41,094 bases of DNA from Bacilli bacterium (GCA_028691715.1 JAQUYR010000003.1:1-41094); one strand, 5' to 3'. Numbered from the stretch's first letter, positions 4,284 through 41,094 are shown. Notes: generated from the sequence alone by a model not told the origin. Translations and numbers: made by a program.

Positions 4284-4312
4284 TTGTCTTTTACAATTTA
4301 ATATTATATAAT
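4284..4312 (+). promoter_or_regulatory. Candidate sigma-A promoter for the large c-di-GMP gene
   Basis: TTGTCT, 17 nt spacer, TATAAT. This would give a leader of about 160 nt before the GTG at 4481. Confidence 0.45.
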
Positions 4313-4480
4313 TATACAAATGGCGTTTTTTTAAGGAAAAGAACGCTTGGGAGATAAGAGAATAAAAAAATATTTTAACTTAAGGACATTGTTCACTAGT
4401 TGTATTATTTTATCAAGGGGATAATATAAAACATTGAGGGCTTTTAATATTAAAAGACTTAGAAACAAGAGGAACACATA

Positions 4481-11980: not shown

Positions 11981-12113
11981 GGATTTTGGCAATCTTTAAA
12001 AATAATTCTTTATTTTATTGGTAAATTATGGTAGTATAAAGAAAAGAATTGGGTGAGGGAAACTTTATTGTTGGACACACTCTTCATCTTTATGAAGAAC
12101 AATGGAGGAGAAT

Positions 12114-13384: not shown

Positions 13385-14182
13385 TTATAAAACAAATTTG
13401 AACATTACTAAAGCTTCTTTATAATTTTGAGTTTGGTAAGCAATTCTATCACTACCGATAAGTTTACATCCAGGGAAGAATGAATTTCGGTAGGCATCTG
13501 TTTGTTTCTTATATTGAACTTCGATATCAAAATTACTAGGTAAATAAACTAGGTTATTTTTTAAATCTCTAGTAAGGGATTTATAGACTCCTTCTTCAAT
13601 TTCACGACAAGTTATATTTGGATGTTTAGAAATAACAGCATTGAATCGTCCCTCTTTACTGGCAACTGTTTCAATATTTGGATTTATTTCCTTAACCAGA
13701 TTTGTTAAATTGGCATCTCCACTTAAGAAAGCAACAGGAACTTTTAAGGTAGAGGCATAGTAAGAATTGATAGTAAATTCACTAGCAATTATGCCATTTA
13801 TTTTGATATGATGAATATGGGTATTCATCGTGTGCGATAGAGGGTTTCCACTAGAACGAGAAGGGCTATGATAACCGATAAAAATAACGGCATCAAAAGT
13901 ATTATCCAGTCCTGCCATCATACTGCAAGGAATTCCTTCCCAACCACGATGAAGTTTAACCTCTTCAGGTAAATCTAATATATCCAGATTTCTAGCACTA
14001 TCGTGGGCATCTTTAATTACAATTTCTGTAGCTCCAGCTTTGATTGCTCCAGCGCATGCGGCTTTTACCTCTCGCTGTAATTCTGATTGAAATTCTTTAT
14101 ATTTTGGACTTGAAGAATCGGTTTCTTCCCAATTACAAATTCCATTTACTCCTTCAATATCAACACTCATATAAACTTTCAT
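13385..14182 (-). CDS. dppA: D-aminopeptidase, peptidase family M55 (DppA-like)
   Basis: Start moved to the second ATG (MKVYMSVDIEGVNGI), which follows AGGAGGAG. The family-typical N-terminus and conserved His/Asp-rich blocks (IGYHSP, HTMN) are present. 265 aa. Confidence 0.8.
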   Translation of the reverse strand: MKVYMSVDIEGVNGICNWEETDSSSPKYKEFQSELQREVKAACAGAIKAGATEIVIKDAHDSARNLDILDLPEEVKLHRGWEGIPCSMMAGLDNTFDAVIFIGYHSPSRSSGNPLSHTMNTHIHHIKINGIIASEFTINSYYASTLKVPVAFLSGDANLTNLVKEINPNIETVASKEGRFNAVISKHPNITCREIEEGVYKSLTRDLKNNLVYLPSNFDIEVQYKKQTDAYRNSFFPGCKLIGSDRIAYQTQNYKEALVMFKFVL

Positions 14183-14302
14183 TTTCTCAACTCCTCCTGA
14201 CATTTACTATTTAATTATACATTAAAATTCGGATAAATAAAATAAATATTTTATTTATTAAGGAAATTATGGTATAATATAATTACATTTTGGAGGTAAA
14301 TA

Positions 14303-19826: not shown

Positions 19827-19852
19827 ATAGACATCAGGTAATTCATCCTGAT

Positions 19853-19917
19853 ATTCGTATAATTGCCTAATTGGAGGAAAGTCTCTACGCTGAACCGTAT
19901 AATTCAGCACTACGAAT
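19853..19917 (+). promoter_or_regulatory. Purine riboswitch aptamer, guanine class (C at the specificity position)
   Basis: - P1: ATTCGTA / TACGAAT.
- J1/2: TAA.
- P2: TTGCCT / AGGAAA (one G-A mismatch), with L2 AATTGG.
- J2/3: GTCTCTAC, against the consensus GUUUCUAC.
- P3: GCTGAA / TTCAGC, with L3 CCGTATAA.
- J3/1: AC, then P1. The C corresponds to C74 of guanine-sensing members. Confidence 0.8.
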
Positions 19918-19938
19918 TAAAGATATTCTTTTAATGAT

Positions 19939-21260: not shown

Positions 21261-21270
21261 TAAGATAATA

Positions 21271-21312
21271 TATAGGGGACCAGACTCGTAATGGGTCCCC
21301 TATATCTATTTA
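21271..21312 (+). terminator. Intra-operon hairpin (attenuator or partial terminator) between the binding-protein and ATPase genes
   Basis: 11-bp GC-containing stem TATAGGGGACC / GGTCCCCTATA with a 12-nt loop, followed by TCTATTTAAT. Confidence 0.55.
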
Positions 21313-21329
21313 ATATGAGGAAAAAATGA

Positions 21330-24006: not shown

Positions 24007-24007
24007 T

Positions 24008-27142: not shown

Positions 27143-27255
27143 AATCTCGCTTTAAGTACCTATATTCAATATCAGGCAACGAATCAGGTCAGGTCGTGAT
27201 TGAAGCAGCCTTAAGTTCAACTTGGTATGTGAGTATAGGTACTTAAGGTGAGATT
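27143..27255 (+). ncRNA. ffs: Small (4.5S-type) signal recognition particle RNA
   Basis: A long hairpin pairs AATCTCGCTTTAAGTACCTATA with TATAGGTACTTAAGGTGAGATT. The apical part carries the conserved domain IV motif CAGGTCAGGTC...GAAGCAGCC. It lies directly downstream of tadA, as in Bacillus. Confidence 0.82.
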
Positions 27256-27310: not shown

Positions 27311-28291
27311 ATGTTTAAAGTTGGAAATGTTGAAATAAATAATCAAATAGTTTTAGCCCCTCTTGCAGGGTATACCAATAAGGCATATCGCAAGATAATC
27401 AAGAAATTTGGGGTGGGACTTGTATTTACCGAGATGATAAGTGCCAAAGGCTTAATATACGATAATGATAAAACATGGGAGTTAACCGACATCGATAAAG
27501 ATGAACATCCAATTGCCGTTCAGTTATTTGGTGGGAATGCTACGGATTTGGTCAAAGCGGCAGTCATGATTGACCAGAGGAGTAAAGCAGATATCATCGA
27601 TATCAATATGGGCTGTCCGGTAAAAAAGGTGATAAAGGCTGATTCAGGAGCAAAGATGCTTCTAGATATCAACAAGGCATATGATATAGTTCATCAGGTC
27701 GTTTTAGCTGTTACAAAACCAGTAAGTGTTAAAATTAGAGCGGGTTGGGATCATAAAAGTATTAACTGTGTTGAATTTGCAAAAGCCATGGAAAAAGCTG
27801 GAGCTTCAATGATAACAATTCATGGAAGAACAAAAACCGACTTATATGGGGGAAAAGTAAATTTAGACTATATAAAAAAAGTTAAGGATAGTGTTAAAAT
27901 ACCAGTTATTGGTAATGGTGATATTAAAAATATTAATGATGCCCGGATAATGTTTGAGTACACTGGGGTTGATGCTGTAATGATTGGACGAGGAACATTT
28001 GGAAATCCTTGGTTGATGCGCGATTTAGTTGACTATTTCTCTGGCAGAACAACGGATGCTCCACCAACAAAATTGGAGAAAGTAGCGATGATTAAGGAGC
28101 ACTTTGAAGAGTTATTAAAGATAAAATCGGAAAAGATTGCTGTTTTAGAGATGAGAACATTAGCTGCCTGGTATGTTAAGGGATTTAGTTATGCTAAGGA
28201 GTTTAAAAGCAAATTACTGGGAATTAAAACAAAAGATGAAATGAATTTATTGATTGAAGAATTAGAGAGAAGCATAAACGAGGAAAAATAA
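27311..28291 (+). CDS. dusB: tRNA-dihydrouridine synthase
   Basis: Dus-family motifs: LAPLAGYTNKAYR, DINMGCPVKKV, HGRT, GNGDI and GRGTFGNPW. 326 aa. Confidence 0.9.
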   Translation: MFKVGNVEINNQIVLAPLAGYTNKAYRKIIKKFGVGLVFTEMISAKGLIYDNDKTWELTDIDKDEHPIAVQLFGGNATDLVKAAVMIDQRSKADIIDINMGCPVKKVIKADSGAKMLLDINKAYDIVHQVVLAVTKPVSVKIRAGWDHKSINCVEFAKAMEKAGASMITIHGRTKTDLYGGKVNLDYIKKVKDSVKIPVIGNGDIKNINDARIMFEYTGVDAVMIGRGTFGNPWLMRDLVDYFSGRTTDAPPTKLEKVAMIKEHFEELLKIKSEKIAVLEMRTLAAWYVKGFSYAKEFKSKLLGIKTKDEMNLLIEELERSINEEK

Positions 28292-30490
28292 ATGAGAACA
28301 AAATCAATGTCAGTTAAAGATAATGTATTATATATGGGAGAACATCGCCTACAGGATTTAGCAAAGGAATATGGAACTCCACTTTATGTTTATGATGAAA
28401 TTGGAATAAATGATAAGATAAGAAAATTTAAGGATAATTTTAACAGTGAAAAATTTAACTGTGAAGTTGTCTATGCTTCTAAAGCATTTATCGCTCCATA
28501 TCTTTGTAAGATTTTAGAAAAGAATGATTTAAGTATCGATTCAGTTAGCGAGGGAGATCTTTACTTGCTCAAAAAAAGTGGTTTTCCGATGAATAAAGTC
28601 GTAGCTCACGGGAATAACAAATTGATGAATGAACTGATTATGGCTCTTGATTATGGTGTTGAATACTTGGTTGTTGATAACCTAACAGAACTTTTACGCT
28701 TGGAGTATTTAGCAAGTCGCAAAAAGAAAAAACTAAAGACATTAATTAGGATTAATCCTGGCATTGAAGCTCATACTCATGCTTATATAGAGACATCACT
28801 TCTGAGTTCAAAATTTGGCGAGTCAATACATGCAACAGATATCTTGGAACAAATGGTTGAGGTATATCGAAATTCAGAGTATTTGACTTTAGAAGGATTC
28901 CATGCCCATATTGGTTCACAAATAAACAATCCCAATAGTTTTATCTCTGAGGTAAAAACGATGTGTCAGTTTATGAGAGATTTTTCTCAGAAGACAAAAT
29001 TTGAGTTTAAAACTTTGGATATTGGTGGAGGCTTTGCTATCAAGTATTTAGATGAAGATGTTGAAATTGATCTACCAACAATGCTTAATCTGATTGTAAA
29101 AGCCGTTGAAGAAGAAATAGAAGATACATCGCTAAAAATTGAAAAATTGATGATTGAACCAGGGAGATCACTGGTTGGCGATTCAGGAATAACTTTGTAT
29201 ACCTGTGGAAGCAAGAAAACAACCTTTAGTGGGAAAAAATACATCTTTATTGATGGAGGAATGGCAGATAATATCAGACCAGCCTTATATCAGGCAAAAT
29301 ATAGTGTTGATATTGCTAATCAGGTAAATACACCAGTTAAGGAAATGTATGATGTGGTTGGCAAGTGCTGTGAGAGTGGCGACATCATCGTGAAGGATGC
29401 TATGATTGGGGAAATTCATAAAGGCGATACGATGGTGGTTTATTCAACAGGTGCATACTGCTATTCGATGTCGATGAATTATAACAGTTTAGTCAGAGGG
29501 GCAGTTATCTTTGTCAATGGACAAAAAGTAACAACAGCAATCAGAAGACAGAGTTTTGAGCATTTATTTGACACATGTGTTTATGAGGAGAAGGAAATGA
29601 AAATATTTGATATACATAGTGATATGCTATACGATTTATATAAACAAAGTCTTATTGGAAATAACACAAGATTTTTAGATTTCCATGTTCCCCAGTTACA
29701 AAATAGCTGTATCAAGGGAGCAATTTGGACGATGTATTCACCAGATGATTTCAATTTACTAAAGGCTGTTAAAGTTGCTATGAGCAAAATAAACCTGAAA
29801 GACTTACCAGGCTTTCAGGTTATATTTGGTCTGGAGGGCTTACGAAATCTTGAGAAGGTTGAAGATATAAATAAGTTATATAAACTTGGTTTCAGACATG
29901 CTATGTTGACATGGAATGAAGCAAATAAGTATGCAACAGGAGTTGCTGGTGATGCCAATAGAGGATTAACTGATGAGGGTGAAAAACTGATAAAGAGAAT
30001 GGAAGAACTGGACATGATTATTGATCTAGCCCATTTAAATGAGAAGAGTTTTTATGGTGTTCTTAAAATCTCGAACAAAAATATTGTTTACTCTCATGGA
30101 TGTGTTAAAGATATATGCAATCATCGTCGTAATGTTACCGATGATCAAATGAAAGCCTTGAAGAAAGTGGATGGATTATTAGGATTAACCCTTGCTAAAA
30201 ACTTTGTCAGCTCTATTGAAGAGGAAAAGGATTTGGAACACTTCCTTGTTCATCTGGATTATGCTGTTGATATAATGGGTGTTGATAATGTTTGCTTCGG
30301 ATTTGACTTTATGGATTACCTATCAGAATTTCCAAATGATAATATAGTTGATGTCCCTAATGCTACAAAGGCATACAGGATAATTGATGGTATGAGAAAA
30401 AATGGATATTCTGAAGAAGAAATAAACAAGATTTGTTGGGGCAATTTTTATAATCGATTTAAAGACAAAATAATGTTAAAAGGAGAATGA
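28292..30490 (+). CDS. Fusion protein: diaminopimelate decarboxylase (LysA, aa 1 to ~430) joined to a peptidase M19 dipeptidase (aa ~436-732)
   Basis: The ATG abuts the dusB stop (TAAATG).
- LysA motifs: VVYASKAF (PLP Lys), HAHIGSQ, DIGGGF, EPGRSLVG, GKCCESGD and GAYCYSMSMNYNS.
- M19 motifs: IFDIHSD (HxD), GLEG, LTWNEANKY, IIDLAHLNEKS, YSHGC and GFDFMDY.
There is no stop codon between the halves. Confidence 0.85.
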   Translation: MRTKSMSVKDNVLYMGEHRLQDLAKEYGTPLYVYDEIGINDKIRKFKDNFNSEKFNCEVVYASKAFIAPYLCKILEKNDLSIDSVSEGDLYLLKKSGFPMNKVVAHGNNKLMNELIMALDYGVEYLVVDNLTELLRLEYLASRKKKKLKTLIRINPGIEAHTHAYIETSLLSSKFGESIHATDILEQMVEVYRNSEYLTLEGFHAHIGSQINNPNSFISEVKTMCQFMRDFSQKTKFEFKTLDIGGGFAIKYLDEDVEIDLPTMLNLIVKAVEEEIEDTSLKIEKLMIEPGRSLVGDSGITLYTCGSKKTTFSGKKYIFIDGGMADNIRPALYQAKYSVDIANQVNTPVKEMYDVVGKCCESGDIIVKDAMIGEIHKGDTMVVYSTGAYCYSMSMNYNSLVRGAVIFVNGQKVTTAIRRQSFEHLFDTCVYEEKEMKIFDIHSDMLYDLYKQSLIGNNTRFLDFHVPQLQNSCIKGAIWTMYSPDDFNLLKAVKVAMSKINLKDLPGFQVIFGLEGLRNLEKVEDINKLYKLGFRHAMLTWNEANKYATGVAGDANRGLTDEGEKLIKRMEELDMIIDLAHLNEKSFYGVLKISNKNIVYSHGCVKDICNHRRNVTDDQMKALKKVDGLLGLTLAKNFVSSIEEEKDLEHFLVHLDYAVDIMGVDNVCFGFDFMDYLSEFPNDNIVDVPNATKAYRIIDGMRKNGYSEEEINKICWGNFYNRFKDKIMLKGE

Positions 30491-30491
30491 A

Positions 30492-31580
30492 ATGAAGGAA
30501 ACTAGTATTGAAGGATTGAATCAGTTGATTCAAAAAGCTATTGAAGATGATGTTTTTCCCGGCGCTAATTATTGTTTAGTCACTGATAATGAGGATTATT
30601 ATGGAAGCTTTGGTAACAAGGCTAGTTACCCTCAAGTAGAAATAAATGATATCGATACTTTATACGATATGGCGTCTTGTAGCAAGGTTATAAGTACAAC
30701 AACTTCCATAATGATGTTATTGGAACAGGGAAAACTTCGTTTATATGATTCTGTTAAAAAATATGTTCCTCGTTTTCGCTATGAAAACATTACTATCTGG
30801 GATTTATTAACCCATTCATCGGGACTACCAGCTGATGTTATCCGATCATCGAAATTAAAAAATCGTGAAGAAGCTTTGGATAGAATTTTTGATTCGGTAT
30901 TAACATATGAAAAAAATTCTAAAGTTGTCTACTCTGATTTGGGATTCATTTTATTAGGATTTGTTGTAGAATCTATTAGTGGAATGACCTTGGACGAGTT
31001 TTCCAGAATCAATATTTTTGAACCACTGGATATGCTTTCAACAGGATATAATCCTGCTGATATTACCAGATGTGCTCCAACTGAAGAGAGAAAAGATGAG
31101 ATTTACAATGGTTTTCTCAGAGGAAAAGTTCATGATGAAAAAGCATTTATCTTAGGTGGAGTTGCTGGACATGCTGGATTGTTCTCCTGTGTTAAAGACT
31201 TGAATCATTTCATAAGAATGATTTTAAATGATGGTGTCTATGAAGGAAAACAAATATTGAGTAAAGCAACTATTGATTTGTTGTTTACTCCTCAAGTGGC
31301 AACAAAAAATGGTGTATCATTAGATGATGATACTAGAGGTTTGGGATGGATCGTTCGCGGAACATTTTGTTCAGCAGGAGATTTAGTCAGCAAAGAGACA
31401 ATTTTACACACAGGTTTTACGGGAACAAATGTTTTTATTGATCGCATTAATAGAGTTGGATTCACGATGTTGAGTAATCGTGTTCACCCAACAAGAGCAA
31501 ATGTTAAAATAATACCTTTTAGAGGAATGCTAGGAAATTATATAATATCTCATTTTGGAGGAAGAAACAGTGGAAATTAA
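30492..31580 (+). CDS. Beta-lactamase-fold serine hydrolase (class C / DD-peptidase / AmiE-like), cytoplasmic
   Basis: Starts 1 nt after the previous stop. Motifs SCSK (SxxK), YSD (YxN position) and HTGFTG (in place of KTG). No signal peptide or TM segment. 362 aa. Confidence 0.85.
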   Translation: MKETSIEGLNQLIQKAIEDDVFPGANYCLVTDNEDYYGSFGNKASYPQVEINDIDTLYDMASCSKVISTTTSIMMLLEQGKLRLYDSVKKYVPRFRYENITIWDLLTHSSGLPADVIRSSKLKNREEALDRIFDSVLTYEKNSKVVYSDLGFILLGFVVESISGMTLDEFSRINIFEPLDMLSTGYNPADITRCAPTEERKDEIYNGFLRGKVHDEKAFILGGVAGHAGLFSCVKDLNHFIRMILNDGVYEGKQILSKATIDLLFTPQVATKNGVSLDDDTRGLGWIVRGTFCSAGDLVSKETILHTGFTGTNVFIDRINRVGFTMLSNRVHPTRANVKIIPFRGMLGNYIISHFGGRNSGN

Positions 31581-32553
31581 GAAATTTAATGAAAAAATGA
31601 TTGGTGATGTTGTTAGATTATGGAATGAAAGTGTTGTTCCGTATTCGATATATGCTGAGTTTACAGAGGAGAGTTTCAAGGATAAATTCATAAATAATCC
31701 TTTTTATGATAATGATGGCAGTTGTGTTGTTGAAGAAGCGGGAAAAATTATTGCTTTTGGAAATGCAACATATAACAATAATGGTTTGGATGTTGAAAAA
31801 ACACCAGGGTATATCACTTGCATAGCGGTTGATAAAGCCTATTGGCGCCAGGGAATTGGAACAAAGATCCTTCACTATTTAGAAGAATTTTTAATGAGTA
31901 AAGGAAAAATTCTTGTTCGCAACTTTTTTGGAAATCCTATAAATCTTAAGTGGTATGTTCCTGGATATAGTAAACATGAACATGCTGGAGCTCCAGCGGT
32001 TGAAATCAATAGCCCGTATTATTTTTTATTGATGGCAAACGGTTATAACATCAATGGTCAACAGGATGCCTACCACATCGATTTAACAAAATATCAAATG
32101 CCTCAAAAGGTCATTGATAAAATCAACGAAAATGAAAAAGATGGTTACACCATTACAATATATGATGAAAAAATTCATTATGGCTTTGATGAATTATTTG
32201 ATGCTTTAGGCAGCGAAGGCTGGCGTCAGGCTATCAAGAATAACCTGGCAAAAGAAAAACCATTACCGATTCTTATTGTTCAAAAAGATGGGGAGATTCT
32301 TGGCTTCACCGGCCCGATAAATAATGAACCGAGTGGCAGAGCTTTTTTAGCTGGTGTTGCAATCCATCCAAAAGCTCAGGCTCGTGGTCTAGGAAAGACA
32401 ATGTTCTGTTCTTTATGTCAAAAATCAAAAGAAAATGGCTCAACATTTATGACTTTATTCACTGGTTCAGACAACAAGGCAAGAAATATATATCTTTACG
32501 CTGGACTTAGAGTGGTAAGATCTTTTGCGGTAATGAGAAAGGACCTTAAATAA
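31570..32553 (+). CDS. Double-GNAT N-acetyltransferase
   Basis: GTG at 31570 lies 8 nt after GGAGG; the alternatives are TTG at 31555 and ATG at 31597. There are two acetyl-CoA motifs, VDKAYWRQGIGTKIL and IHPKAQARGLGKTMF, so two GNAT folds sit in tandem. The gene overlaps the upstream gene's end. Confidence 0.8.
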   Translation: MEIKKFNEKMIGDVVRLWNESVVPYSIYAEFTEESFKDKFINNPFYDNDGSCVVEEAGKIIAFGNATYNNNGLDVEKTPGYITCIAVDKAYWRQGIGTKILHYLEEFLMSKGKILVRNFFGNPINLKWYVPGYSKHEHAGAPAVEINSPYYFLLMANGYNINGQQDAYHIDLTKYQMPQKVIDKINENEKDGYTITIYDEKIHYGFDELFDALGSEGWRQAIKNNLAKEKPLPILIVQKDGEILGFTGPINNEPSGRAFLAGVAIHPKAQARGLGKTMFCSLCQKSKENGSTFMTLFTGSDNKARNIYLYAGLRVVRSFAVMRKDLK

Positions 32554-32554
32554 A

Positions 32555-33244
32555 ATGGCAAAAACATTTATGGCAATTGGTGGTCATATAGGCGATATGG
32601 AATTGACAGCTGGATGTGTTTTAGCACATCAAGCGCTTCATGGTGATAAGATAATTACTGTGGCTTTGACAGCTGGAGAAAGAGGAAATCCTCAGGGAAT
32701 GAGTCAAGCTGAATATCGTGTCCAAAAGGTTAAAGAGGCTGAAACATTTGCTCAAATGTTAAATGGAGAGGCTATTGTTCTTGATTATCCCGATGGTGAA
32801 TTACCTAATAATGACACAGTTAGATGGCAAGTAGCAGCTTTAATCAGAAAATATCGTCCTAATGTTATTTTTACTCATTGGGGAAATAGTATGCATAAAG
32901 ACCACATCAATACTAATAGAATAGTTATTGATGCTGCCTTTTGGGCAGGAATTGATGTTGGTGACAAATTAGAAGGAACGCCTTGTTGGGCTCCGCTTTA
33001 TTTCTGTGAGAATTGGGAAGATCGCGAAGGATTTGATCCTTATATGATGGTTGACTGTAGCGATGGCTATGATTTATGGTGTCAAGCAATAAGTAAACAC
33101 TGGTTTATCATGAACAGCCCATCTTTTAGATATTATGATTACTATACTCATTTGACTTATGTTCGAGGAGCTTTAGGTAAATATCAACATGCTCAATGCT
33201 TTGATGTTAAAGGATATCAAAAATTTACAAAGGTGAGTTTCTAA
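32555..33244 (+). CDS. PIG-L / LmbE-family N-acetylglucosaminyl deacetylase-like protein
   Basis: Starts 1 nt after the previous stop. The N-terminal motif is AIGGHIGDMELTAG (family consensus AHPDDxE), followed by FTHWGNSMHKDH (the HxDH zinc motif). 229 aa. Confidence 0.78.
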   Translation: MAKTFMAIGGHIGDMELTAGCVLAHQALHGDKIITVALTAGERGNPQGMSQAEYRVQKVKEAETFAQMLNGEAIVLDYPDGELPNNDTVRWQVAALIRKYRPNVIFTHWGNSMHKDHINTNRIVIDAAFWAGIDVGDKLEGTPCWAPLYFCENWEDREGFDPYMMVDCSDGYDLWCQAISKHWFIMNSPSFRYYDYYTHLTYVRGALGKYQHAQCFDVKGYQKFTKVSF

Positions 33245-33245: not shown

Positions 33246-34184
33246 ATGAAAAACAAACCCCAAAAACTTAGGATTAATGATACAATCGGATTAATATGCC
33301 CAGCATTTAAAAATCCTAATATGGATTCTGTCAATAGAGCTATTGAATATTTAAACAAAAAAGGTTACAAGGTGAAAGTTGGAGAATCTTGTACGGCTAG
33401 TGAAGGTTACTTAGCTGGCAGTGATAGCTTTCGGGCTCGTGATTTAGAAAAAATGTTTCTTGATGATGAGGTTAAAGCAATTGTGTGCATGCGTGGTGGT
33501 TATGGTGCTAGTCGCATGGTCGATTTAATAGACTATGAAATAATAAAAAACAACCCTAAAATCTTTTCAGGGTACAGTGATATAACGGTTTTATTAAATT
33601 CAATATATCGTAAATCCAATATGCCAACCCTTCATGGAATGGTCGGCTTCGCTTTTGGAAGTGATAAATTTGTTGATTTTAGCGAAAATGATTTTTGGAT
33701 GGCAACTACTGAGTTACAAAAAAATAGAATTTTAAGAACACCTGATGATAAAGCAAAGACCTTGGTTGAGGGCGTTGCTCAAGGTGAACTTGTCGGTGGA
33801 AATCTTAGTCTATTGGCAACGATGGTTGCTAGTGATTATGGAGCAGATTTTAAGGATAAAATAGTTTTTATCGAAGAAGTTGAAGAGGAACCATATAAAC
33901 TTGATCGCTATTTTTCAACACTTCGTCTTTCAGGGAAATTAAAGGAAGCAAAAGGGTTTATTTTTGGATATTTTACCGATTGCGAACCGAGTGAAAATCG
34001 TAAAGGAACTCAAAATTACTTAGATGTAATAAAAGATTATTTTCTGGAGTATAATAAGCCAACTATTTATGACTTTGCATCTGGTCATGATTATCCATTC
34101 ATTAATTTACCAATGGGAATAAAAGTAGAACTCGATGCTAATGACAAAACGATTAAGATCTTAGAAGAGTTTTATCAGGAATAA
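33246..34184 (+). CDS. ldcA: LD-carboxypeptidase (peptidase S66, LdcA/MccF family)
   Basis: Starts 1 nt after the previous stop. Motifs: IGLICPA, CMRGGYGASR, FSGYSDIT (nucleophile Ser), FIEEVEEEPYKLDR (Glu) and ASGHDYPFINLPMG (His). Confidence 0.9.
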   Translation: MKNKPQKLRINDTIGLICPAFKNPNMDSVNRAIEYLNKKGYKVKVGESCTASEGYLAGSDSFRARDLEKMFLDDEVKAIVCMRGGYGASRMVDLIDYEIIKNNPKIFSGYSDITVLLNSIYRKSNMPTLHGMVGFAFGSDKFVDFSENDFWMATTELQKNRILRTPDDKAKTLVEGVAQGELVGGNLSLLATMVASDYGADFKDKIVFIEEVEEEPYKLDRYFSTLRLSGKLKEAKGFIFGYFTDCEPSENRKGTQNYLDVIKDYFLEYNKPTIYDFASGHDYPFINLPMGIKVELDANDKTIKILEEFYQE

Positions 34185-34219: not shown

Positions 34220-35521
34220 ATGCAAAAAGCACTTAAAAGATATACCTTACCAGGATATGTGACGTATTATGGAACAACTAAGAAAGTTATGATACCTGTT
34301 GAATACCAGGAAAAAGAAGAAGAATTAAGAGGCGTGTGGTTCTCAACTGTAGCTAATATTGACATTCCTCAAATGACTGATGAAGAAAAGATTAAGGAAT
34401 ATTTATTAGGGGTAATCAAAAAAGTTAAAGAATATAATATGAATACGGTGGTCTTCCAAGTTAGACCGATGAATGATGCTTTTTATCAATCAAAGTTAAA
34501 TCCTTGGAGTCGTTATATAACTGGTGTAGAAGGTAAAAATCCTGGATTTGATGTCTTCGGTTTCTTTGTTGAGGAAGCAAAAAAAGAAGGAATTACTACT
34601 CATGCTTGGATTAATCCATATCGTGTTTCAACTCAAAAATTGAGCGATTTAAATCAAACAAAAGAAGAGTATCTGAAGACACTTGATAAGAACAATTTTG
34701 CTAGACGTCATCCTGAATGTGTCATTGAAACATCTTTAACAAAATTAATATTAGATCCTTCGAGCTCAAAAGTGAGAAAATTTGTTACGGATACAGTCAT
34801 TGAGATTGCTAAGAATTATGATATAAAGGCTGTTCACATCGATGATTATTTTTATCCTTATGAACCAATTGCTGATCCTCTAGAAGAGGAAAAATTTAAG
34901 AAGACTAAGTTTACAAAAATATCAGATTTCAGGCGAAATAATGTTGATAAACTGATTAAAATGATATCAGTTAATCTGAAAAAGCTTGACAAAAAGGTTG
35001 AATTTGGAATTAGCCCATTTGGAATATATCGTACAAATTCCAAACTTTTTGATGATCTGGATGATGAGGCGGCTTGGGACAAAGGATCAAACAACCATAA
35101 AGGATGTTTTAGCTGTTACAAAGGCTTATACGCTGATGTCTATTTATGGATGAAGAAAAAGTGGATTGACTACATTACTCCTCAAGATTATTTTGATTTT
35201 AGTAATACTAAAATTGATGAAAATAATCAAGAGGTATGCCGCGTGAGATATGCTGATCTAGCGAAATGGTGGAGCTGGGCAGCAAAGAAAACAGGAATTA
35301 AATTATATATGGGGCAAGGCATTTATCGCTATTCAGATGAAGGCGATTGGGCCAATCCAGAAGAAATAATTAATCAACTAAAGTTCAACACCTTATTTCC
35401 AAATATCATGGGAACAATGTTTTTCACATATAAAAATTTTGTAGAGGATAAATATGAATCATGTGTTAAAGGAAGAGAACTAATCAAACAACTTTGGACA
35501 AAACCAGTGAAGGAAATATAA
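34220..35521 (+). CDS. Glycoside-hydrolase-like family 10 (GHL10 / DUF187, YngK-like) TIM-barrel protein, no signal peptide
   Basis: AAAGGAGAAG SD. ELRGVWFSTVANIDIPQ and NTVVFQVRPMNDAFYQSKLNPWSRYITG match the GHL10 N-terminal signature, along with HAWINPYR and VHIDDYFYP. Confidence 0.8.
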   Translation: MQKALKRYTLPGYVTYYGTTKKVMIPVEYQEKEEELRGVWFSTVANIDIPQMTDEEKIKEYLLGVIKKVKEYNMNTVVFQVRPMNDAFYQSKLNPWSRYITGVEGKNPGFDVFGFFVEEAKKEGITTHAWINPYRVSTQKLSDLNQTKEEYLKTLDKNNFARRHPECVIETSLTKLILDPSSSKVRKFVTDTVIEIAKNYDIKAVHIDDYFYPYEPIADPLEEEKFKKTKFTKISDFRRNNVDKLIKMISVNLKKLDKKVEFGISPFGIYRTNSKLFDDLDDEAAWDKGSNNHKGCFSCYKGLYADVYLWMKKKWIDYITPQDYFDFSNTKIDENNQEVCRVRYADLAKWWSWAAKKTGIKLYMGQGIYRYSDEGDWANPEEIINQLKFNTLFPNIMGTMFFTYKNFVEDKYESCVKGRELIKQLWTKPVKEI

Positions 35522-35528
35522 AAATATA

Positions 35529-35558
35529 AGCAGCGTTGTTACTAAACGTTGCTTTTTA
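35529..35558 (+). terminator. Rho-independent terminator closing the dusB-to-GHL10 unit
   Basis: GCAGCGTT-GTTACTA-AACGTTGC (one wobble), followed by TTTTT. Confidence 0.65.
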
Positions 35559-35668: not shown

Positions 35669-35697
35669 TTGAAAAAAAGAGTATTTTATAGTATAAT
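35669..35697 (+). promoter_or_regulatory. Sigma-A promoter for the GH20 / binding-protein / permease unit
   Basis: TTGAAA, 17 nt spacer, TATAAT. Confidence 0.55.
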
Positions 35698-35764: not shown

Positions 35765-37648
35765 ATGTATAAAATATACCCAAACGTAAAAAAATTCTCT
35801 ATGGAAATGGAGGAATTTGTTACAAAAGAAAAATTGACCGTTTTTTTTCGGGGAGAAGCGGAAAACGTTTTTACGAAAACCAATGATTTTATTGATGAAA
35901 AAGTTTCGGTGTTAGAGGAAGAGGCCGACATTATTTTTGTTAAGGATGAGAGTTTAGGGATTGAAGCCTATAAACTCGATGTTAAAAATAAAATCTATAT
36001 TTACTATAAAACTAGGAGTGGAGCTTTTTTTGCTCTACAGACTTTAAAACAGATTTTAATGCAATGTAGTGGAAGAATTAGATATCTACATATATTTGAT
36101 GAACCAGATATAAAGATCAGGGGATTAATGTTAGATATCAGCCGTGACAAAGTTCCAAAAAAAGAAACCGTGAAGTCAATTATTGATATGATGGCTGATT
36201 TGAAAATGAATCATCTGGAATTGTATGTTGAAGGATTCTCGTTTGGATATCAGAGTTTTAAACAATTTTTAGAAGAAGATGGATACATAAGCGTTGAAGA
36301 ATATCAGGAATTAGAGGATTATGCTAATTCAGTATGTATTGATTTTGTCCCTAACCAAAATGGATTTGGACATATGACTAAGTGGCTTGAAACTAAAGAG
36401 TATAAAGAGCTTGCTGAATGTCCAGAAGGAATCTTTCTTTGGGGAAGAAATCGCAAATCAAGCACACTAAATCCAATTGATCCAAAATCATTGAAATTGG
36501 TTACTAGGATGTATGATGATATGCTACCATATGCTAAATCTTCTTATTTTAACATGAATTTTGATGAACCTTTTGAATTAGGAAAAGGAAAATCAAAAGC
36601 TGAATGCGATGAAAAAGGTATTGGTAATGTCTATATCGATTTTGTTTTAAAAGCTTATGAGATTATTAAAAAATATCAAAAGACTCCTTTAATTTGGGGT
36701 GATGTTTTGATTAATCATCCTGAATTATTGCATAGATTACCTCAAGATATGATTTTCGTTGACTGGGGTTATGATGCTTTTCATCAATTTAATAAAAATT
36801 TGGAGATACTTAAAAAAGCAGGAGTTAAATTTATGGCAGCTCCAGGGACTACTAGCTGGGCTAGTTTTACAGGAAAGAATCGGGATTGGTCCGAAAACAT
36901 TACAAATGCTTGCCTAGCAGTTAAAGAGCATGGTGGTGAAGGAGTACTTCTAACCGATTGGGGAGATTTTGGACATCTTCAGTTTTTACCAATTACTTAT
37001 CCTGGTCTAGTTTTCATGGGATTATATTCTTGGAGAATCAAAGAGGGCACATATTTAAGTGTAAAAGATTATCTAAATAATTATATCTTTAAGGATGAAA
37101 CAGGCATTATCGGTGAATGTTTACTCGATTTGGGTAATTATTATCGCCTTGAAAATAGTTATGGTGGTAATGGTACGCCAACATTCTATAATTTTATGTG
37201 GGGTAGTATTGCTAATAGCGAAGAAAATAAAATTGAATATTATGTTTCTAAGGTAGAATCAAGTTTCTTAAGTTTTAAGAGGTTTAAGTTGTTTAGAAGA
37301 TTCTTTAGTTTTAAAATTGAAGAATTGAACATGACCGAAATGAAATGTGATGATGCTGATTTGGTTAAAGATGAATTATTACAATCCATTAGATTTGTAA
37401 AGATGATTCAAAAGGTTAATATTGGATTAAACGAAAGTATTGATTTGAATTTAAGAAAGAGATATTTAGAAGAAGTTGTGGCTTCAAGAGATATGTTTAT
37501 TAATGAGCAAAGTAGATTATGGCATGCTAGAAATAAATCAGGGGGATTTAAAGATAGTATATCCTATGTCATAGAATTTATCGATTTTGCTGAATATATG
37601 TTAGAATTTTTAAATAGAAGAGGTGAAGGTTATGAAATCCAAAATTAA
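35765..37648 (+). CDS. GH20-family beta-N-acetylhexosaminidase-like protein (non-canonical, HexD-like catalytic motifs), no signal peptide
   Basis: The N-terminal GH20b-like domain reads ...EAYKLDV...IYYKTRSGAFFALQTLKQIL. The barrel follows: IFDEPDIKIRGLMLDISRDKVP...MADLKMNHLELYVEG, with an Asp-Glu pair in NMNFDEPFELG. Confidence 0.68.
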   Translation: MYKIYPNVKKFSMEMEEFVTKEKLTVFFRGEAENVFTKTNDFIDEKVSVLEEEADIIFVKDESLGIEAYKLDVKNKIYIYYKTRSGAFFALQTLKQILMQCSGRIRYLHIFDEPDIKIRGLMLDISRDKVPKKETVKSIIDMMADLKMNHLELYVEGFSFGYQSFKQFLEEDGYISVEEYQELEDYANSVCIDFVPNQNGFGHMTKWLETKEYKELAECPEGIFLWGRNRKSSTLNPIDPKSLKLVTRMYDDMLPYAKSSYFNMNFDEPFELGKGKSKAECDEKGIGNVYIDFVLKAYEIIKKYQKTPLIWGDVLINHPELLHRLPQDMIFVDWGYDAFHQFNKNLEILKKAGVKFMAAPGTTSWASFTGKNRDWSENITNACLAVKEHGGEGVLLTDWGDFGHLQFLPITYPGLVFMGLYSWRIKEGTYLSVKDYLNNYIFKDETGIIGECLLDLGNYYRLENSYGGNGTPTFYNFMWGSIANSEENKIEYYVSKVESSFLSFKRFKLFRRFFSFKIEELNMTEMKCDDADLVKDELLQSIRFVKMIQKVNIGLNESIDLNLRKRYLEEVVASRDMFINEQSRLWHARNKSGGFKDSISYVIEFIDFAEYMLEFLNRRGEGYEIQN

Positions 37649-40600
37649 GTATAACCCACTAGTTGCTAAGAAGGCAATTCTTTGGCTATTATTAATAGCA
37701 ATTGTTGGTTTTTTAGGTGGTACGATAGTTCAAAGCTTTGAATCTGGACATAAATCGTCTTATTCAAAACTTCTTGACAATGAAATACCTGCTGGTAGTT
37801 ATGAAGATTATTTAAAATTACAAGCTGGAGTAAATCCAAATCGTCTAGATGAATTTGAGTTAGCTGATTTTTGGCAATACTTAAAATTTCCTGAAGGCGA
37901 GTCAATTTATGTTGATGGGAATACTGGCTTAGCTAGTGAAGATGCTGTTGGTTTTGCTGCTAATTATTTGATTGATGGCAAAAAAGGTTACTACACTAGT
38001 GAAGATGGTACAGTTACTTGGAATATTAATAACATTCCAAAAGCTGGTATGTATTATGTCAAGATAAACTATTACTTACCTGAAGGCGGCGGAAGCAATG
38101 CTGAAAGGTTAATTTCAATAAATGATGAGGTTTTATTTAATGATTTAAATAATGTTACCTTCTATCGTGTTTGGAAGGATAAAGAAGCTATTAAGCAAGA
38201 TATTACTGGTAATGATTTAAAGCCAACACAAGTGGAAGTTTATTCTGAAAGATCAACATACCTTCGTGATGAGACTGGTTATATATCAGAACCATTTATG
38301 ATTTATTTTGAAGAAGGTCAGAATACAATTTCTTTTACATCTCTTCGAGAAAATCTTATTATTTTTAGTTTTGAGATTGTTTCTGTATTTAGTACTTATA
38401 CATATGAAGAATATTTAGAAGCAAATAAAGATGCTAGGGTTACCAGTGGAACAATTGAGAAAATCGAAGCTGAAGCTGCTACTGAAAGATCTTCACCAAC
38501 TCTATATGCTACTAGCGATAGGACTAGTCCTTTGAATACTCCTTCTGATCCAGTTAAAACTAAATATAATGCAATTGGTGGATCAAAATGGTCGACACCA
38601 GGAGATTGGATTTCTTGGACGGTGACTGTCCCTGAAGCTGGTTTCTATAATATTTCTCTTCGTGCTAAACAAAACTTGTCAAGAGGTTTGTTTTCAACAA
38701 GAAAAGTATATGTTAATGGCGTTGTTCCATTTAAAGAAGCTAATAATGCTAGATTTTTCTATAGTAGTGATTGGGAGGTAATTACCATAGGTAGTGAAGA
38801 TGAAGCATATCTATTCTATCTTGAAGAAGGAGAGAATACGATTGCTTTAGAAGCAACCCTTGGTGATTATGGAGATCCTATTAGTCAGGTTCAACAAGTA
38901 ATAGATGATTTAAGTGATTTATATTTAAAGATAATTGCGATTACAACTGCTAGTCCCGATGAATATCAGGAGTATAATTTATATGGTGATAATGCCCGTA
39001 TTTCAACTGATGCTGATGGCAGGACTATGGAGGAAATATTTGCTGATAGTGCGGTTACTTTAAACCAAGTATCAGAATATATTACCAGTCTAACTGGAGA
39101 AAAGAGCAGTTTGAATAGCTCTTTGGATAAAATAGTTTTACAAATCGGTGGAGAAGTTACTAGAAATGGTAAGACCTCTGATTTAGGGGGCTTTGCTACA
39201 AAACCATGGAATGTTACAAAGGATTTAAAGGAGTTCAAAACAAATCTTTCGGCTCTAGGAACATGGATTTTGGATATCAAAGACCAATCATTAATAATTG
39301 AATGTCTATGGGTTCATTCACAAGATGTCGATTTACCAAAGGCAAATGCCAATTTCTTTACTCAGACATGGTTTAAAACTAGGGCCTTCTTCTTATCGTT
39401 CTTCTTTGATTATGAATCAATCGGAATAACTTCTACTGAAGGATTTGAAAAAGAAATCGAAGTTTGGTATTTAACAAGTGAATCTACTGGACGTGAGCAG
39501 GTTAATGCGGTAAAGAATTTGATTGATACAACATTTATTCCTGATACGGGAATAAATGTAATCTTAAAAATTCTGGCACCAGGTGTTTTATTACCAGCTA
39601 CTCTTGCAGGAACTGGTCCAGATGTTGCCATCAATGTTGCTGGAGGATTACCAGTAAATTATGCTTTGCGTGGAGCTATCTATGATGTAAGTCAACAAGA
39701 AGACTTCCACGAAGTAACAGGTATTTGCACAGCTGAAAATGCTGCTAAAGGTAATTGTACCCAAAACAATGGCAATTATACAGATACTGATTATGTAAAA
39801 TATGACTACCCTGAATATGCAAGGTTCCAATATAGTTCTATGGTTCCTTTCGAATTAGAGGGAAGTTACTATGCTCTTCCTAATACATCTTCGTTCTTAG
39901 TAATGTTCTATCGAACTGATATTTTTGAAGAAAACGGCTGGTCAGTTCCTAAAACTTGGGATGATGTTAAACTTTTAGTAACCGAATTACAAGTATCAAA
40001 TTTGGATTTCTATTTACCATTTGAAGATGCTGGATCAGTAATCTATGCTACGATGTTATATCAAATGGGTGGGCAATTCTATCGCAATGATGATAAAGAG
40101 TCTGATTTCGATTCCGAACTAGGAATGCAGGCCTTTGAAGATTGGTGCAGTTATTTTACTGATTATAGTTTCTTATTATCAGCAAACTTCACAAATAGAT
40201 TTAGAACTGGTGAAATGCCAATTGGTATTGCATCATATGAATTATTTAATACATTGACAGTTTTTGCTCCTGATATCATGGGTAAATGGACATTTGCTCC
40301 ACTACCAGGAACTTATCGTGAAGATGGAACTTATAATAACAGTGGTGTTGCTACAAGTACAGCCGTTGTTATTATGGAACAAGCCAGAGATAAGGATTCA
40401 TCTTGGGAATTTTTGAAATGGTGGACTTCTACAGAGACACAATATAGTTATGCTAGAGAATTAGAGTCAATTTTGGGAGCAGCTGCTCGTCATAATACTG
40501 CTAATATTGAAGCCTTTAAATTATTGCCTTGGTCTAAGTCTGAGAGAGAAATATTAGTATCACAATGGGAAATCACAGTAGGTCTTCCTGAAATTGCTGG

Positions 40601-40751
40601 TGGTTACTATGTTGGACGTAATCTAGAAAATGCTATTCGTGCGGTTATCAATGATGATACAAATCCACGAGAAACATTTAGTGATTATATTGTTCTAATC
40701 AATAGTGAAATCACAAGGAAACGTCAGGAATTTGGACTACCTGTTGATTAG
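37632..40751 (+). CDS. Membrane-anchored giant solute-binding protein: TM anchor, two CBM-like beta-sandwich repeats, linker, family-1 extracellular solute-binding domain
   Basis: ATG at 37632 overlaps the GH20 stop; the track's GTG at 37623 is less likely. TM helix AILWLLLIAIVGFLGGTIV. The internal repeat is WNINNIPKAGMYYVKINYY...FEEGQNTISF versus WISWTVTVPEAGFYNISLRA...LEEGENTIAL. The C-terminal ~450 aa look like a sugar-binding protein (WSVPKTWDDV, MPIGIASY, GKWTFAPLPG). Confidence 0.8.
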   Translation: MKSKIKYNPLVAKKAILWLLLIAIVGFLGGTIVQSFESGHKSSYSKLLDNEIPAGSYEDYLKLQAGVNPNRLDEFELADFWQYLKFPEGESIYVDGNTGLASEDAVGFAANYLIDGKKGYYTSEDGTVTWNINNIPKAGMYYVKINYYLPEGGGSNAERLISINDEVLFNDLNNVTFYRVWKDKEAIKQDITGNDLKPTQVEVYSERSTYLRDETGYISEPFMIYFEEGQNTISFTSLRENLIIFSFEIVSVFSTYTYEEYLEANKDARVTSGTIEKIEAEAATERSSPTLYATSDRTSPLNTPSDPVKTKYNAIGGSKWSTPGDWISWTVTVPEAGFYNISLRAKQNLSRGLFSTRKVYVNGVVPFKEANNARFFYSSDWEVITIGSEDEAYLFYLEEGENTIALEATLGDYGDPISQVQQVIDDLSDLYLKIIAITTASPDEYQEYNLYGDNARISTDADGRTMEEIFADSAVTLNQVSEYITSLTGEKSSLNSSLDKIVLQIGGEVTRNGKTSDLGGFATKPWNVTKDLKEFKTNLSALGTWILDIKDQSLIIECLWVHSQDVDLPKANANFFTQTWFKTRAFFLSFFFDYESIGITSTEGFEKEIEVWYLTSESTGREQVNAVKNLIDTTFIPDTGINVILKILAPGVLLPATLAGTGPDVAINVAGGLPVNYALRGAIYDVSQQEDFHEVTGICTAENAAKGNCTQNNGNYTDTDYVKYDYPEYARFQYSSMVPFELEGSYYALPNTSSFLVMFYRTDIFEENGWSVPKTWDDVKLLVTELQVSNLDFYLPFEDAGSVIYATMLYQMGGQFYRNDDKESDFDSELGMQAFEDWCSYFTDYSFLLSANFTNRFRTGEMPIGIASYELFNTLTVFAPDIMGKWTFAPLPGTYREDGTYNNSGVATSTAVVIMEQARDKDSSWEFLKWWTSTETQYSYARELESILGAAARHNTANIEAFKLLPWSKSEREILVSQWEITVGLPEIAGGYYVGRNLENAIRAVINDDTNPRETFSDYIVLINSEITRKRQEFGLPVD

Positions 40752-40765: not shown

Positions 40766-41094
40766 ATGGAAAATAATATAAAACAAGAAAACAAACCAAC
40801 CTTTTTAAAGCGTTTCTCAAAGTGGAGAGAAGGAAGAAGAAAAAAAATCGACCAATGGAGTCGTAAGAAACCTTTCAGACGAAAGATGTATTTAAATAGA
40901 TCGCTATATCTAATGATGTTTCCATATCTTCTATTATTCACAACATTCACAGTAATTCCGGTTGTGATGAGTTTAGGATTGAGTTTCACAGACTTTAACC
41001 TTTTAGAATGGCCACCAGGATGGGTTGGTTGGGATAATTATCTTAACTTGTTCTTGGAAGACCCAATATTTGTAACAGCCTTAAAGAATACTTT
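40766..41094 (+). CDS. ABC sugar-transporter permease (MalF/LplB-like), 5' part only, running off the window
   Basis: This ORF is not in the track because no stop is reached. The ATG lies 5 nt after GGAGA. My translation is MENNIKQENKPTFLKRFSKWREGRRKKIDQWSRKKPFRRKMYLNRSLYLMMFPYLLLFTTFTVIPVVMSLGLSFTDFNLL.... The last part is the typical first TM helix and motif of CUT1 permeases. Confidence 0.75.
   Translation, partial: MENNIKQENKPTFLKRFSKWREGRRKKIDQWSRKKPFRRKMYLNRSLYLMMFPYLLLFTTFTVIPVVMSLGLSFTDFNLLEWPPGWVGWDNYLNLFLEDPIFVTALKNT

Follow-up and report, generated by a model that had tools for sequence, protein, structure and literature searches.

LysA and the M19 dipeptidases are both known enzyme families. 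LysA, with structures from Mycobacterium tuberculosis (1HKV) and Corynebacterium glutamicum (5X7M), is the fold-type III pyridoxal phosphate (PLP) enzyme that converts meso-diaminopimelate (meso-DAP) to L-lysine, and the M19 enzymes, for instance Lmo2462 of Listeria monocytogenes, Sco3058, human DPEP1, and GliJ, are zinc-dependent amidohydrolases. M19 enzymes tolerate bulky side chains, as in the cases of GliJ and leukotriene D4 (LTD4), and the bacterial members are said, in work reportedly by Cummings et al. in 2010, to prefer L-Xaa-D-Xaa dipeptides, including those with C-terminal D-Glu or D-Asp; we know of no established natural substrate of a bacterial M19 dipeptidase. Here we analyze a protein in which LysA and an M19 dipeptidase are joined in one chain, encoded in DNA of a Bacilli bacterium (GCA_028691715.1, JAQUYR010000003.1:1-41094), the whole stretch of 41,094 nucleotides being called the window below. 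No paper on a LysA-M19 fusion was found in the searchable literature, to which the architecture is therefore new, in agreement with an earlier note on this DNA that had not recognized it as described. We suggest that the fusion probably acts as a bifunctional enzyme in a cytoplasmic pathway that degrades imported peptidoglycan fragments.

The two halves of the LysA-M19 protein

The open reading frame (ORF) extends from an ATG over positions 28292..30490 (+) and encodes 732 aa, the coordinates and length given in the earlier note, and all motifs quoted there are present in the translation (YASKAF, HAHIGSQ, DIGGGF, EPGRSLVG, and GKCCESGD in the decarboxylase half; HSD, GLEG, LAH, SHG, and GFDF in the dipeptidase half). 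Three Pfam domains are found in it, Orn_Arg_deC_N (162 bits), Orn_DAP_Arg_deC (64 bits), and Peptidase_M19 (215 bits).

The N-terminal half, whose last approximately eight residues (...TCVYEEKE) form the junction, is predicted to be a meso-DAP decarboxylase producing L-lysine. Over residues 9-427 it scores 408.1 bits with the NCBIfam equivalog model of lysA, TIGR01048 (cut-off 297.9). The ornithine/lysine decarboxylase model DokD reaches 147 bits, far below its cut-off of 700, and the models of arginine decarboxylase and of the N-citrylornithine decarboxylase FslC also stay far under their NCBIfam cut-offs. LysA of M. tuberculosis matches residues 19-427 (E=1e-75), with YASKAF, EPGR, DNIRPALY, CCESGD, and TGAYCYS aligned with the motifs of that enzyme; the PLP lysine is present as K64 of YASKAF, opposite YAAKAF in the M. 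tuberculosis protein. Among 71 fused proteins, no variation occurs at K64, H206, G245-247, E289-R292, R329, Y333, C360, E361, or Y389, nor in HIGSQ at 206-210 and GGGF at 245-248, the latter providing the glycine-rich phosphate loop. By analogy with the structures from M. tuberculosis and M. jannaschii, we assume that EPGR (R292), DNIRPALY (R329, Y333), CCESGD (C360, E361), and TGAYCYS (Y389) bind the distal (L) center of DAP and contribute the catalytic Cys-Glu pair of the partner subunit. In a Foldseek comparison, the decarboxylase part of the predicted structure showed template modeling (TM) scores of 0.88-0.91 normalized on DAP decarboxylase chains, with E-values down to 3e-44, and thus the TIM barrel followed by a C-terminal beta domain. 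The score above the TIGR01048 cut-off and the end-to-end match to M. tuberculosis LysA bear out the earlier claim of a complete DAP-type decarboxylase.

The C-terminal half is predicted to be a short zinc dipeptidase of the Lmo2462 type. Peptidase_M19 (PF01244) matches with 214.8 bits at a gathering score of 26; the half is 297 aa long, and the best stretch spans profile positions 104-318 only. The remaining N-terminal part contains FDIHSD, for which the alignment to the GliJ metal site HxD is weak, and in the AlphaFold model strands and helices alternate from residue 438 through the C-terminus, consistent with a barrel. Profile matches in PDB include GliJ (2e-31), Lmo2462 (3e-30), Sco3058 (1.5e-27), and human DPEP1 (2.7e-26). 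Residues D440, H442, D444, E515, H581, H602, R613, and D672 are invariant in the 71 fused proteins. Among them H442/D444, E515, H581, H602, and D672 align with the HnD, iEG, DLSH, YSHS, and GSDF motifs of GliJ, and these residues of the binuclear zinc site, with D672 as the catalytic Asp, are also invariant in all four groups of M19 orthologs. For comparison, the zinc ligands of human DPEP1 are His20, Asp22, Glu125, His198, and His219 (PMC9305348). The earlier description of a complete M19 half with intact metal-ligand positions thus agrees with the invariance of H442/D444, E515, H581, and H602. The segment H611-x-R613-N614 corresponds to HaRNV in GliJ, and the arginine that binds the C-terminal carboxylate of the substrate is presumably R613.

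The His of the L-T-H motif, which we take to be the second-shell His152 of human DPEP1, is not found in the M19 half; its place is occupied by Trp541 within an invariant TWNE. Since TWN is shared with Lmo2462 (3LU2/3NEH), whereas Sco3058 and GliJ have THN, Trp541 marks a short bacterial M19 subgroup, whose Lmo2462-type members, at 311-318 aa, are comparable in size. The same TWN in Lmo2462 led us to reject the idea that the His-to-Trp replacement denotes an inactive or repurposed enzyme. Lmo2462 has reportedly been crystallized with a mimic of L-Leu-D-Ala; no paper on its specificity was found in the searchable literature.

The polar pocket residues, like the metal ligands, are the same across the four ortholog groups. 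Two positions, each beside a zinc-binding His, set the LysA-linked group apart: A580 and G603 (window positions about 30029-30031 and 30098-30100) occur only there, with Ser elsewhere and in Lmo2462. These replacements (S580A and S603G) may be a small adaptation of the pocket or just a phylogenetic signal.

An AlphaFold2 model of the whole protein was built from the 71 fused homologs, a prediction of the kind that the earlier note had proposed. LysA and M19 enzymes both form dimers. The mean predicted local distance difference test value (pLDDT) is high, 91.4; the geometry between the domains is not predicted confidently (predicted TM score, pTM, 0.64), and the model therefore offers no structural evidence for a channel. 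The fusion itself is real, and both halves, judged by the conserved residues, appear catalytically competent.

Distribution and origin of the fusion

Though undescribed, the fusion is not rare, being widespread in public data. The earlier note had proposed a check of domain architectures, and a search of 5.8 billion protein clusters at 90% identity returned more than 105 clusters that combine both decarboxylase Pfam domains with Peptidase_M19. They originate from ENA, Logan, JGI, and NCBI, are 51-99% identical, and are 725-739 aa long. The named clusters are labelled merely "diaminopimelate decarboxylase" of Acholeplasmataceae or Bacilli metagenome-assembled genomes (MAGs); by name, the sources of the fusion are Acholeplasmataceae, Mollicutes, "Tenericutes", and "Bacilli" MAGs. 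A scan with a profile of the M19 half against one genome per species yielded 247 relatives, and 79 loci were fetched, to which all locus counts and L-numbers below refer. Intact fused ORFs are present in at least 30 species-representative genomes among these loci. MAGs with the fusion include GCA_012838705.1 (DUOT01), JAQUVC01, JAAYBG01, and MSHB01, and GCA_964622435.1 is one of the split relatives. When 1.84 billion representatives at 50% identity were searched exhaustively, only one of them matched both halves, so the architecture is limited to a single family and did not emerge in other phyla.

Split relatives differing by one frame exist, as would be expected if a frameshift error had joined two ordinary genes. 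Nevertheless, such an artefact is refuted for the family as a whole, and its chance is practically nil: the same fused ORF recurs in the independent clusters from four sources and in the species genomes counted above, an independent contig (P0001) encodes a 732-aa protein 99% identical to the fusion, and many fused homologs have a non-start residue in place of the junction Met.

In about 18 loci, lysA and an M19 gene encoding a 300-aa product are adjacent but separate genes of one operon. For instance, in L004 and L005 the lysA stop codon overlaps the M19 start codon within the same operon (GAATAATGAAA; TAATG), and the products are 63% and 65% identical to the LysA and M19 halves of the window protein, respectively, the separate 300-aa M19 product of L004 showing the 65% identity. 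Where the window has its GAGGAG-ATG junction, the split relatives carry GAGGTGGAATAATG. Met436 (ATG at 29597) is the former start codon of the separate M19 gene that has survived in the window, and the GAGGAG preceding it is a relic of the split state. Possibly, a separate M19 product is also made in the window lineage by internal initiation at Met436. In more distant fused proteins, position 436 is occupied by H, P, K, Q, S, Y, A, or G; as the junction Met is replaced there by non-start residues, these proteins are obligate single chains. The junction comprises about 5-8 residues in all fused forms, with almost no linker.

The fusion would have originated from neighboring genes with coupled translation through loss of the intervening stop codon, and a single base change is enough to fuse TAATG-coupled genes. 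In a neighbor-joining tree of the concatenated halves, made without support values, three fused clades alternate with split clades, so that the fused or split state must have changed at least three times. We considered recurrent independent fusion as a sign of selection, but did not uphold it, as the tree lacks support values and the length and sequence of the junctions give no direction of change (fusion versus fission). A separate observation concerns L017, where split lysA and M19 lie in one frame with a single stop codon between them (9986-9988), one substitution from the fused state.

Gene neighborhood and possible pathway

The fusion gene is the second in a packed run of Dus, LysA-M19, S12, GNAT, PIG-L, S66, and GHL10 genes (Table 1), with intergenic gaps of 0, 1, -26, 1, 1, and 35 nt, so that the Dus stop codon abuts the fusion ATG. 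Beyond the GHL10 gene follow a hexosaminidase, a binding protein, and the start of a permease gene.

Table 1. Predicted features of the LysA-M19 locus, in window coordinates
Feature	Position	Strand	Basis
LysA half (residues 1-435), fold-type III PLP meso-DAP decarboxylase	28292..29596	+	TIGR01048, 1HKV, Foldseek
Shine-Dalgarno-like GAGGAG, 6 nt before the in-frame ATG (29597) of the M19 half	29585..29590	+	sequence reading
M19 half (residues 436-732 and stop codon), short Lmo2462-type binuclear-zinc dipeptidase	29597..30490	+	PF01244
Dus-family FMN enzyme (tRNA dihydrouridine synthase-like)	27311..28291	+	PF01207, 295 bits
PF00144 (S12) serine hydrolase, PBP4B-like, no signal peptide	30492..31580	+	PF00144, 189 bits
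Tandem GNAT acetyltransferase, GlmA-like; start codon uncertain	31555..32553	+	two GNAT domains
PIG-L/LmbE-family (CE14-type) metal-dependent deacetylase	32555..33244	+	PF02585, 78 bits
S66 LD-carboxypeptidase (LdcA-like)	33246..34184	+	PF02016 and PF17676
GHL10 glycan-cleaving enzyme, Cwp19-like, no signal peptide	34220..35521	+	PF02638, 180 bits
Terminator-like hairpin, end of first transcription unit	35528..35554	+	10-pair stem and T run; consensus match only
Promoter-like site TTGAAA-17-TATAAT ahead of GH20	35669..35697	+	11/12 matches; consensus match only
GH20 beta-N-acetylhexosaminidase	35765..37648	+	PF00728 and PF02838
1042-aa membrane-anchored protein with C-terminal sugar-type solute-binding domain	37623..40751	+	SBP_bac_8, SBP_bac_1 at 663-945
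ABC permease gene start, runs off the window	40766..41094	+	translation; orthologous BPD_transp_1 permeases in L003
M55 D-aminopeptidase (DppA-like), 14 kb upstream	13385..14203	-	PF04951, 279 bits

The S12 protein, which presumably shares family PF00144 with AmiE of Bacillus subtilis, is a candidate amidase cleaving the bond between N-acetylmuramic acid (MurNAc) and L-Ala, or a candidate D-stereospecific peptidase. Its best NCBIfam model, PBP4B, gives 186 bits, below the cut-off of 385, and the PDB search for this protein matched only generic esterases and peptidases, yielding no functional assignment; in B. subtilis, AmiE/YbbE acts as a MurNAc-L-Ala amidase (PMC5061867). The only PDB relatives of the GNAT protein are 5KF1, 5KGA, and 5KGH (E=3e-6), of which 5KF1 is the glucosamine N-acetyltransferase GlmA (PMC10936415), and the PDB relatives of the PIG-L protein are TT1542, BshB, and diacetylchitobiose deacetylases. 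The S66 protein scores 144 bits with the NCBIfam model of muramoyltetrapeptide carboxypeptidase, below the cut-off of 378. The GHL10 protein matches Cwp19 of Clostridioides difficile (5OQ2) with E=2.6e-69, and Cwp19 is a peptidoglycan lytic transglycosylase (PMC6016235). Together with GH20, genes for cleavage of the GlcNAc-MurNAc glycan (GlcNAc, N-acetylglucosamine) are thus present at the level of families.

The binding protein shows weak matches of the NgcE type and has an N-terminal hydrophobic helix, being the only protein of the cluster with an N-terminal membrane anchor; in L003, BPD_transp_1 permeases come after its ortholog. The protein is unusually large (1042 aa, with 1009-1247 aa in relatives), and about 620 residues without assignment, with only a faint CBM35-like match, precede its binding domain. 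All enzymes of the cluster are without signal peptides and would therefore act on imported material. The M55 gene, distant in the window, lies just upstream of Dus in L011, L013, L017, L021, L026, L035, and L036, and its product is possibly an accessory of the pathway.

The same gene order is found around fused homologs that are 54-56% identical overall and around split relatives, and the order of the cluster is kept at 50-65% identity. Dus is located upstream of LysA in nearly all LysA-linked loci (L001-L054); as an aside, in L045 and L055 Dus is directly followed by the M19 gene, without LysA. This Dus may be a housekeeping tRNA enzyme or a member of the pathway. More distant M19 orthologs, 38-45% identical, come from gut Mollicutes, Bacilli, and Erysipelotrichaceae MAGs and reside in a cluster of S12, GNAT, PIG-L, GHL10, GH20, and binding-protein genes without LysA and without S66. 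In Acholeplasma and the cultured Haploplasma modicum, which belongs to Acholeplasmatales, M19 occurs with PIG-L and GNAT, beside GH20 and a NAGPA-type glycosidase. Every locus in which S66 was found has LysA as well, and S66 is absent from the cluster loci without LysA. The primary association of M19 appears to be with the cluster and not with LysA. Because M19 orthologs with the same pocket sit in LysA-less clusters, these observations suggest that LysA, and probably S66 as well, was a later addition to the cluster, and that LysA was then fused. In L059, from an Acholeplasmataceae MAG, the order is S12-GNAT-PIGL-S66-LysA-[1.7 kb insert]-M19-GHL10..., and this position of LysA inside the cluster argues against LysA as a chance neighbor at its edge.

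Several relatives carry other genes in or near the cluster. The 1.7-kb insert of L059 (8230-10000) contains three small ORFs, one lipoprotein-like and one encoding a membrane protein. QueH, an epoxyqueuosine reductase, is inserted after GHL10 in L001 (16419-17033) and after S66 in L003 (14158-14775), two distant fused lineages. L001, also an Acholeplasmataceae MAG, has three GH18 genes (3906-8229), one of them EndoS-like, just upstream of the operon with Dus and the fusion, a hint at chitin or N-glycans as additional targets of the wider locus.

The last observation bears on a different explanation of the locus, that the cluster serves mainly for chitin, GlcNAc glycans, or glycopeptides, with LysA a housekeeping neighbor and the fusion a tolerated accident of overlapping codons. 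Besides the GH18 genes of L001, it would account for GH20, for PIG-L, whose relatives include diacetylchitobiose deacetylases, for the weak NgcE-type matches of the binding domain, and for the Haploplasma locus, consisting of GH20, NAGPA, M19, PIG-L, and GNAT without peptide-specific genes; the single base change sufficient for fusion is compatible with an accident. However, S66, M55, S12, and the Cwp19-like GHL10 indicate peptidoglycan, LysA lies inside the cluster beside S66 in L059, S66 is restricted to LysA-containing loci, and the fusion has been kept intact over 51-99% identity. We regard this explanation as quite improbable.

The preferred explanation, catabolism of imported peptidoglycan fragments, would proceed as follows. 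The fragments would be imported by the membrane-anchored binding protein and the ABC (ATP-binding cassette) permease, their glycan cut by GH20 and the Cwp19-like GHL10, and its N-acetylation adjusted by the PIG-L deacetylase and the GlmA-like GNAT. The PBP4B/AmiE-like serine hydrolase would release the stem peptide, and the S66 LD-carboxypeptidase would take off the terminal D-Ala. The M19 half would then hydrolyze an L-Xaa-D-Xaa bond in the remaining fragment of the stem peptide, and the LysA half would turn the released meso-DAP into L-lysine. We infer the substrates of the enzymes, the order of the steps, and any physical channeling from gene content and homology. The link of wall-derived DAP to lysine is supported by the genomic context, and the general idea of the earlier note, which connected a wall peptide containing a D-amino acid with DAP decarboxylation, fits the conserved gene neighborhood, a context that it did not mention.

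A number of observations weigh against this scheme. Among the window ORFs of at least 100 aa, there are no MurQ- or MurK-type MurNAc genes, no MurNAc kinase or phosphotransferase system (MurP), and no gamma-D-Glu-DAP endopeptidase of the NlpC/P60 or M14 type; these negatives cover 41 kb, and the missing genes could lie elsewhere in the genome. With no NlpC/P60-, M14-, or MurQ-type gene in the window, the scheme has a gap at DAP release. The RNA scan found no lysine riboswitch in the window, and the S12, S66, and PIG-L proteins all remain under the cut-offs of the NCBIfam equivalogs. GH20, PIG-L, the NgcE-like binding domain, and the GH18 genes of L001 also fit the use of chitin or GlcNAc glycans. 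Finally, as M19 with the same pocket occurs without LysA, the fusion could reflect co-expression and not consecutive chemistry.

The candidate target bonds of the M19 half are mDAP-D-Ala, L-Ala-D-isoglutamate (D-iGlu), and possibly a bond whose cleavage frees DAP. In the model that follows the suggestion of the earlier note, it would split meso-DAP-D-Ala, in which the carboxyl of the L-center is linked to D-Ala, and DAP would be handed directly to the fused LysA site. Such a model joins consecutive steps, the commonest reason for a stable fusion, and suits the membership of the M19 half in the Lmo2462 subgroup with its TWN, the replacements S580A and S603G that flank the zinc ligands specifically in the LysA group, the presence of M19 in clusters without S66, and the fact that the window shows no further peptidase that would release DAP. 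Yet the operon already has a predicted S66 LD-carboxypeptidase for the mDAP-D-Ala bond of tetrapeptides, and free mDAP-D-Ala would need earlier cleavage of gamma-D-Glu-DAP, for which no enzyme in the window was matched. Furthermore, M19 orthologs with the same pocket occur without LysA, and the low confidence of the interdomain geometry (pTM 0.64 versus pLDDT 91) provides no structural evidence for a channel. Thus we consider direct transfer of DAP from mDAP-D-Ala unlikely.

Cleavage of L-Ala-D-Glu, or removal of L-Ala from the freed stem peptide, is no less plausible as its activity. The D-iGlu of L-Ala-gamma-D-Glu-mDAP keeps a free alpha-carboxylate. If the M19 half cut L-Ala-D-Glu, or L-Ala off L-Ala-gamma-D-Glu-mDAP, another enzyme would free DAP, and the fusion would only fix the stoichiometry and co-expression of two parallel end steps. 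Such an activity would agree with the L-Xaa-D-Xaa preference of bacterial M19 enzymes, C-terminal D-Glu included, and with the tolerance of M19 enzymes for bulky side chains. It would also account for the presence of the same M19 in clusters lacking LysA or S66, since walls of the DAP type and of the Lys type both contain L-Ala-D-iGlu; in those clusters, orthologs with the same ligands and pocket indicate that the activity is not intrinsically dedicated to DAP. On the other hand, DAP release is left unexplained, fusions of non-consecutive enzymes are less usual, and the repeated fused and adjacent states suggest a tighter coupling. Parallel steps therefore seem possible, though somewhat unlikely.

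The lack of NlpC/P60- or M14-type gamma-D-Glu-DAP peptidases in the window modestly favors release of DAP by the M19 or the S12 protein. In the boldest version, the M19 half is the missing DAP-releasing peptidase, and hosts without de novo DAP synthesis, perhaps wall-less, scavenge the walls of their neighbors, with meso-DAP passed directly to LysA. We think this version speculative and, on balance, doubtful. If it were true, it would give short bacterial M19 dipeptidases a first physiological role, and reduced-genome bacteria similar to Acholeplasmatales would obtain lysine from cell-wall fragments of neighboring bacteria.

To see whether the hosts look wall-less or auxotrophic for DAP, 1.39 Mb of flanking sequence was probed by tblastn with 14 E. 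coli proteins of the Mur, Fts, Ddl, Dap, and Asd types. No matches to dap, asd, mraY, ftsW, ftsI, murD-G, or ddl were found in these flanks, a result too weak to establish absence of the DAP pathway. A genuine MurA fragment is present in L013 (1-840, minus strand), a member of a fused clade. Divergent MurC-like ligases occur near L059 (1-537), L063, L069, L074, and L075, about 2.7 kb upstream of the cluster, with a LacI-type regulator and tyrosyl-tRNA synthetase between. An Mpl-type recycling function of these ligases is not supported, as they score better as MurC than as Mpl and below both cut-offs. Some hosts thus appear to retain wall-synthesis genes, and in view of MurA in L013 and the MurC-like ligases near the clusters a wall-less state cannot be assumed. 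In the A. oculi genome paper, DapF is one of two additional proteins encoded by A. oculi; suggestively, the other acholeplasmas compared there may be without DapF. No paper on the use of muropeptides by Acholeplasmatales was found in the searchable literature.

The same data bear on de novo synthesis of lysine, in which the M19 half would be an N-acyl-LL-DAP deacylase in place of DapE/DapL. M19 enzymes are amidohydrolases cleaving N-acyl-amino-acid bonds, and both activities would then belong to one pathway. Nevertheless, there are no dap genes in the window or in the 1.39 Mb flanks, M19 is primarily tied to glycosidase and deacetylase genes even without LysA, and the two steps would need DapF in between. 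A deacylase is accordingly a highly improbable function of the M19 half.

The window has further features. The RNAs found there are two tRNAs, a purine riboswitch (19835-19932), and a small signal recognition particle RNA (27153-27248) only; the riboswitch precedes an operon for a PnrA/Bmp-type nucleoside ABC transporter (20004-24991), and the signal recognition particle RNA lies immediately upstream of the Dus-LysA operon. The region 4481-9088 encodes a 1535-aa PAS/EAL/GGDEF cyclic-di-GMP protein, notable for a seemingly small, low-GC (about 32%), Mollicutes-like genome. The ORF at 12102-13238 (378 aa), similar to aspartate ammonia-lyase, covers profile positions 2-394 of 474 and, being short at the C-terminus, may be truncated or a pseudogene.

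Comparison with described systems

The fusion is common in reduced-genome Bacilli and Mollicutes of guts, digesters, and sediments, where the database labels, naming LysA only, make its second activity invisible to pathway reconstruction. A DAP decarboxylase within an operon for wall fragments implies foreign or recycled peptidoglycan as a source of lysine, which would bear on amino-acid cross-feeding and apparent auxotrophies in uncultured gut Mollicutes. For bacterial M19 dipeptidases in general, the locus provides a physiological hypothesis, that they hydrolyze L-Xaa-D-Xaa bonds of stem peptides.

The window protein resembles the meso-DAP decarboxylases of M. tuberculosis (1HKV) and C. glutamicum (5X7M) in full-length homology, the PLP lysine, and the DAP-binding motifs. 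In contrast to them, it has an additional C-terminal M19 domain of 297 aa attached through a junction of at most 8 residues, and it is encoded in a wall-fragment catabolic operon and not with dap genes. Lmo2462 of L. monocytogenes (3LU2/3NEH) is similar to the M19 half in length (about 300 aa), shares its metal ligands, and likewise has T-W-N at the place of T-H-N/S in long M19 enzymes, with homology established by profile (E=3e-30). However, Lmo2462 is not fused to LysA, and A580 and G603 of the LysA-linked group replace the Ser residues that flank two zinc ligands. The long M19 enzymes Sco3058, DPEP1, and GliJ share the binuclear-zinc amidohydrolase fold with its HxD, bridging Glu, two His, and catalytic Asp; in the window protein, Trp stands for the second-shell His, the N-terminal third is shorter, and the protein is predicted to be cytoplasmic and not membrane-anchored.

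Wall recycling in B. subtilis (murQRP-amiE-nagZ-ybbC and ykfABCD) and E. coli (AmpD, LdcA, MpaA, and Mpl) is similar to the locus, which combines a hexosaminidase, a candidate MurNAc-peptide amidase, and a candidate LD-carboxypeptidase with a presumed cytoplasmic processing of imported fragments. The locus differs from these systems in that MurQ, MurK, MurP, and peptidases of the NlpC/P60 or MpaA type are missing from the window, whereas GH20, GHL10, PIG-L, and the GlmA-like GNAT are used. It also includes LysA, by which DAP would become lysine instead of returning to the wall. Finally, the bifunctional aspartate kinase/DAP decarboxylase (NF006515) likewise contains a LysA domain inside a larger bifunctional protein of lysine metabolism, but there the partner is the first biosynthetic enzyme, whereas in the window protein it is a peptidase tied to a catabolic cluster.

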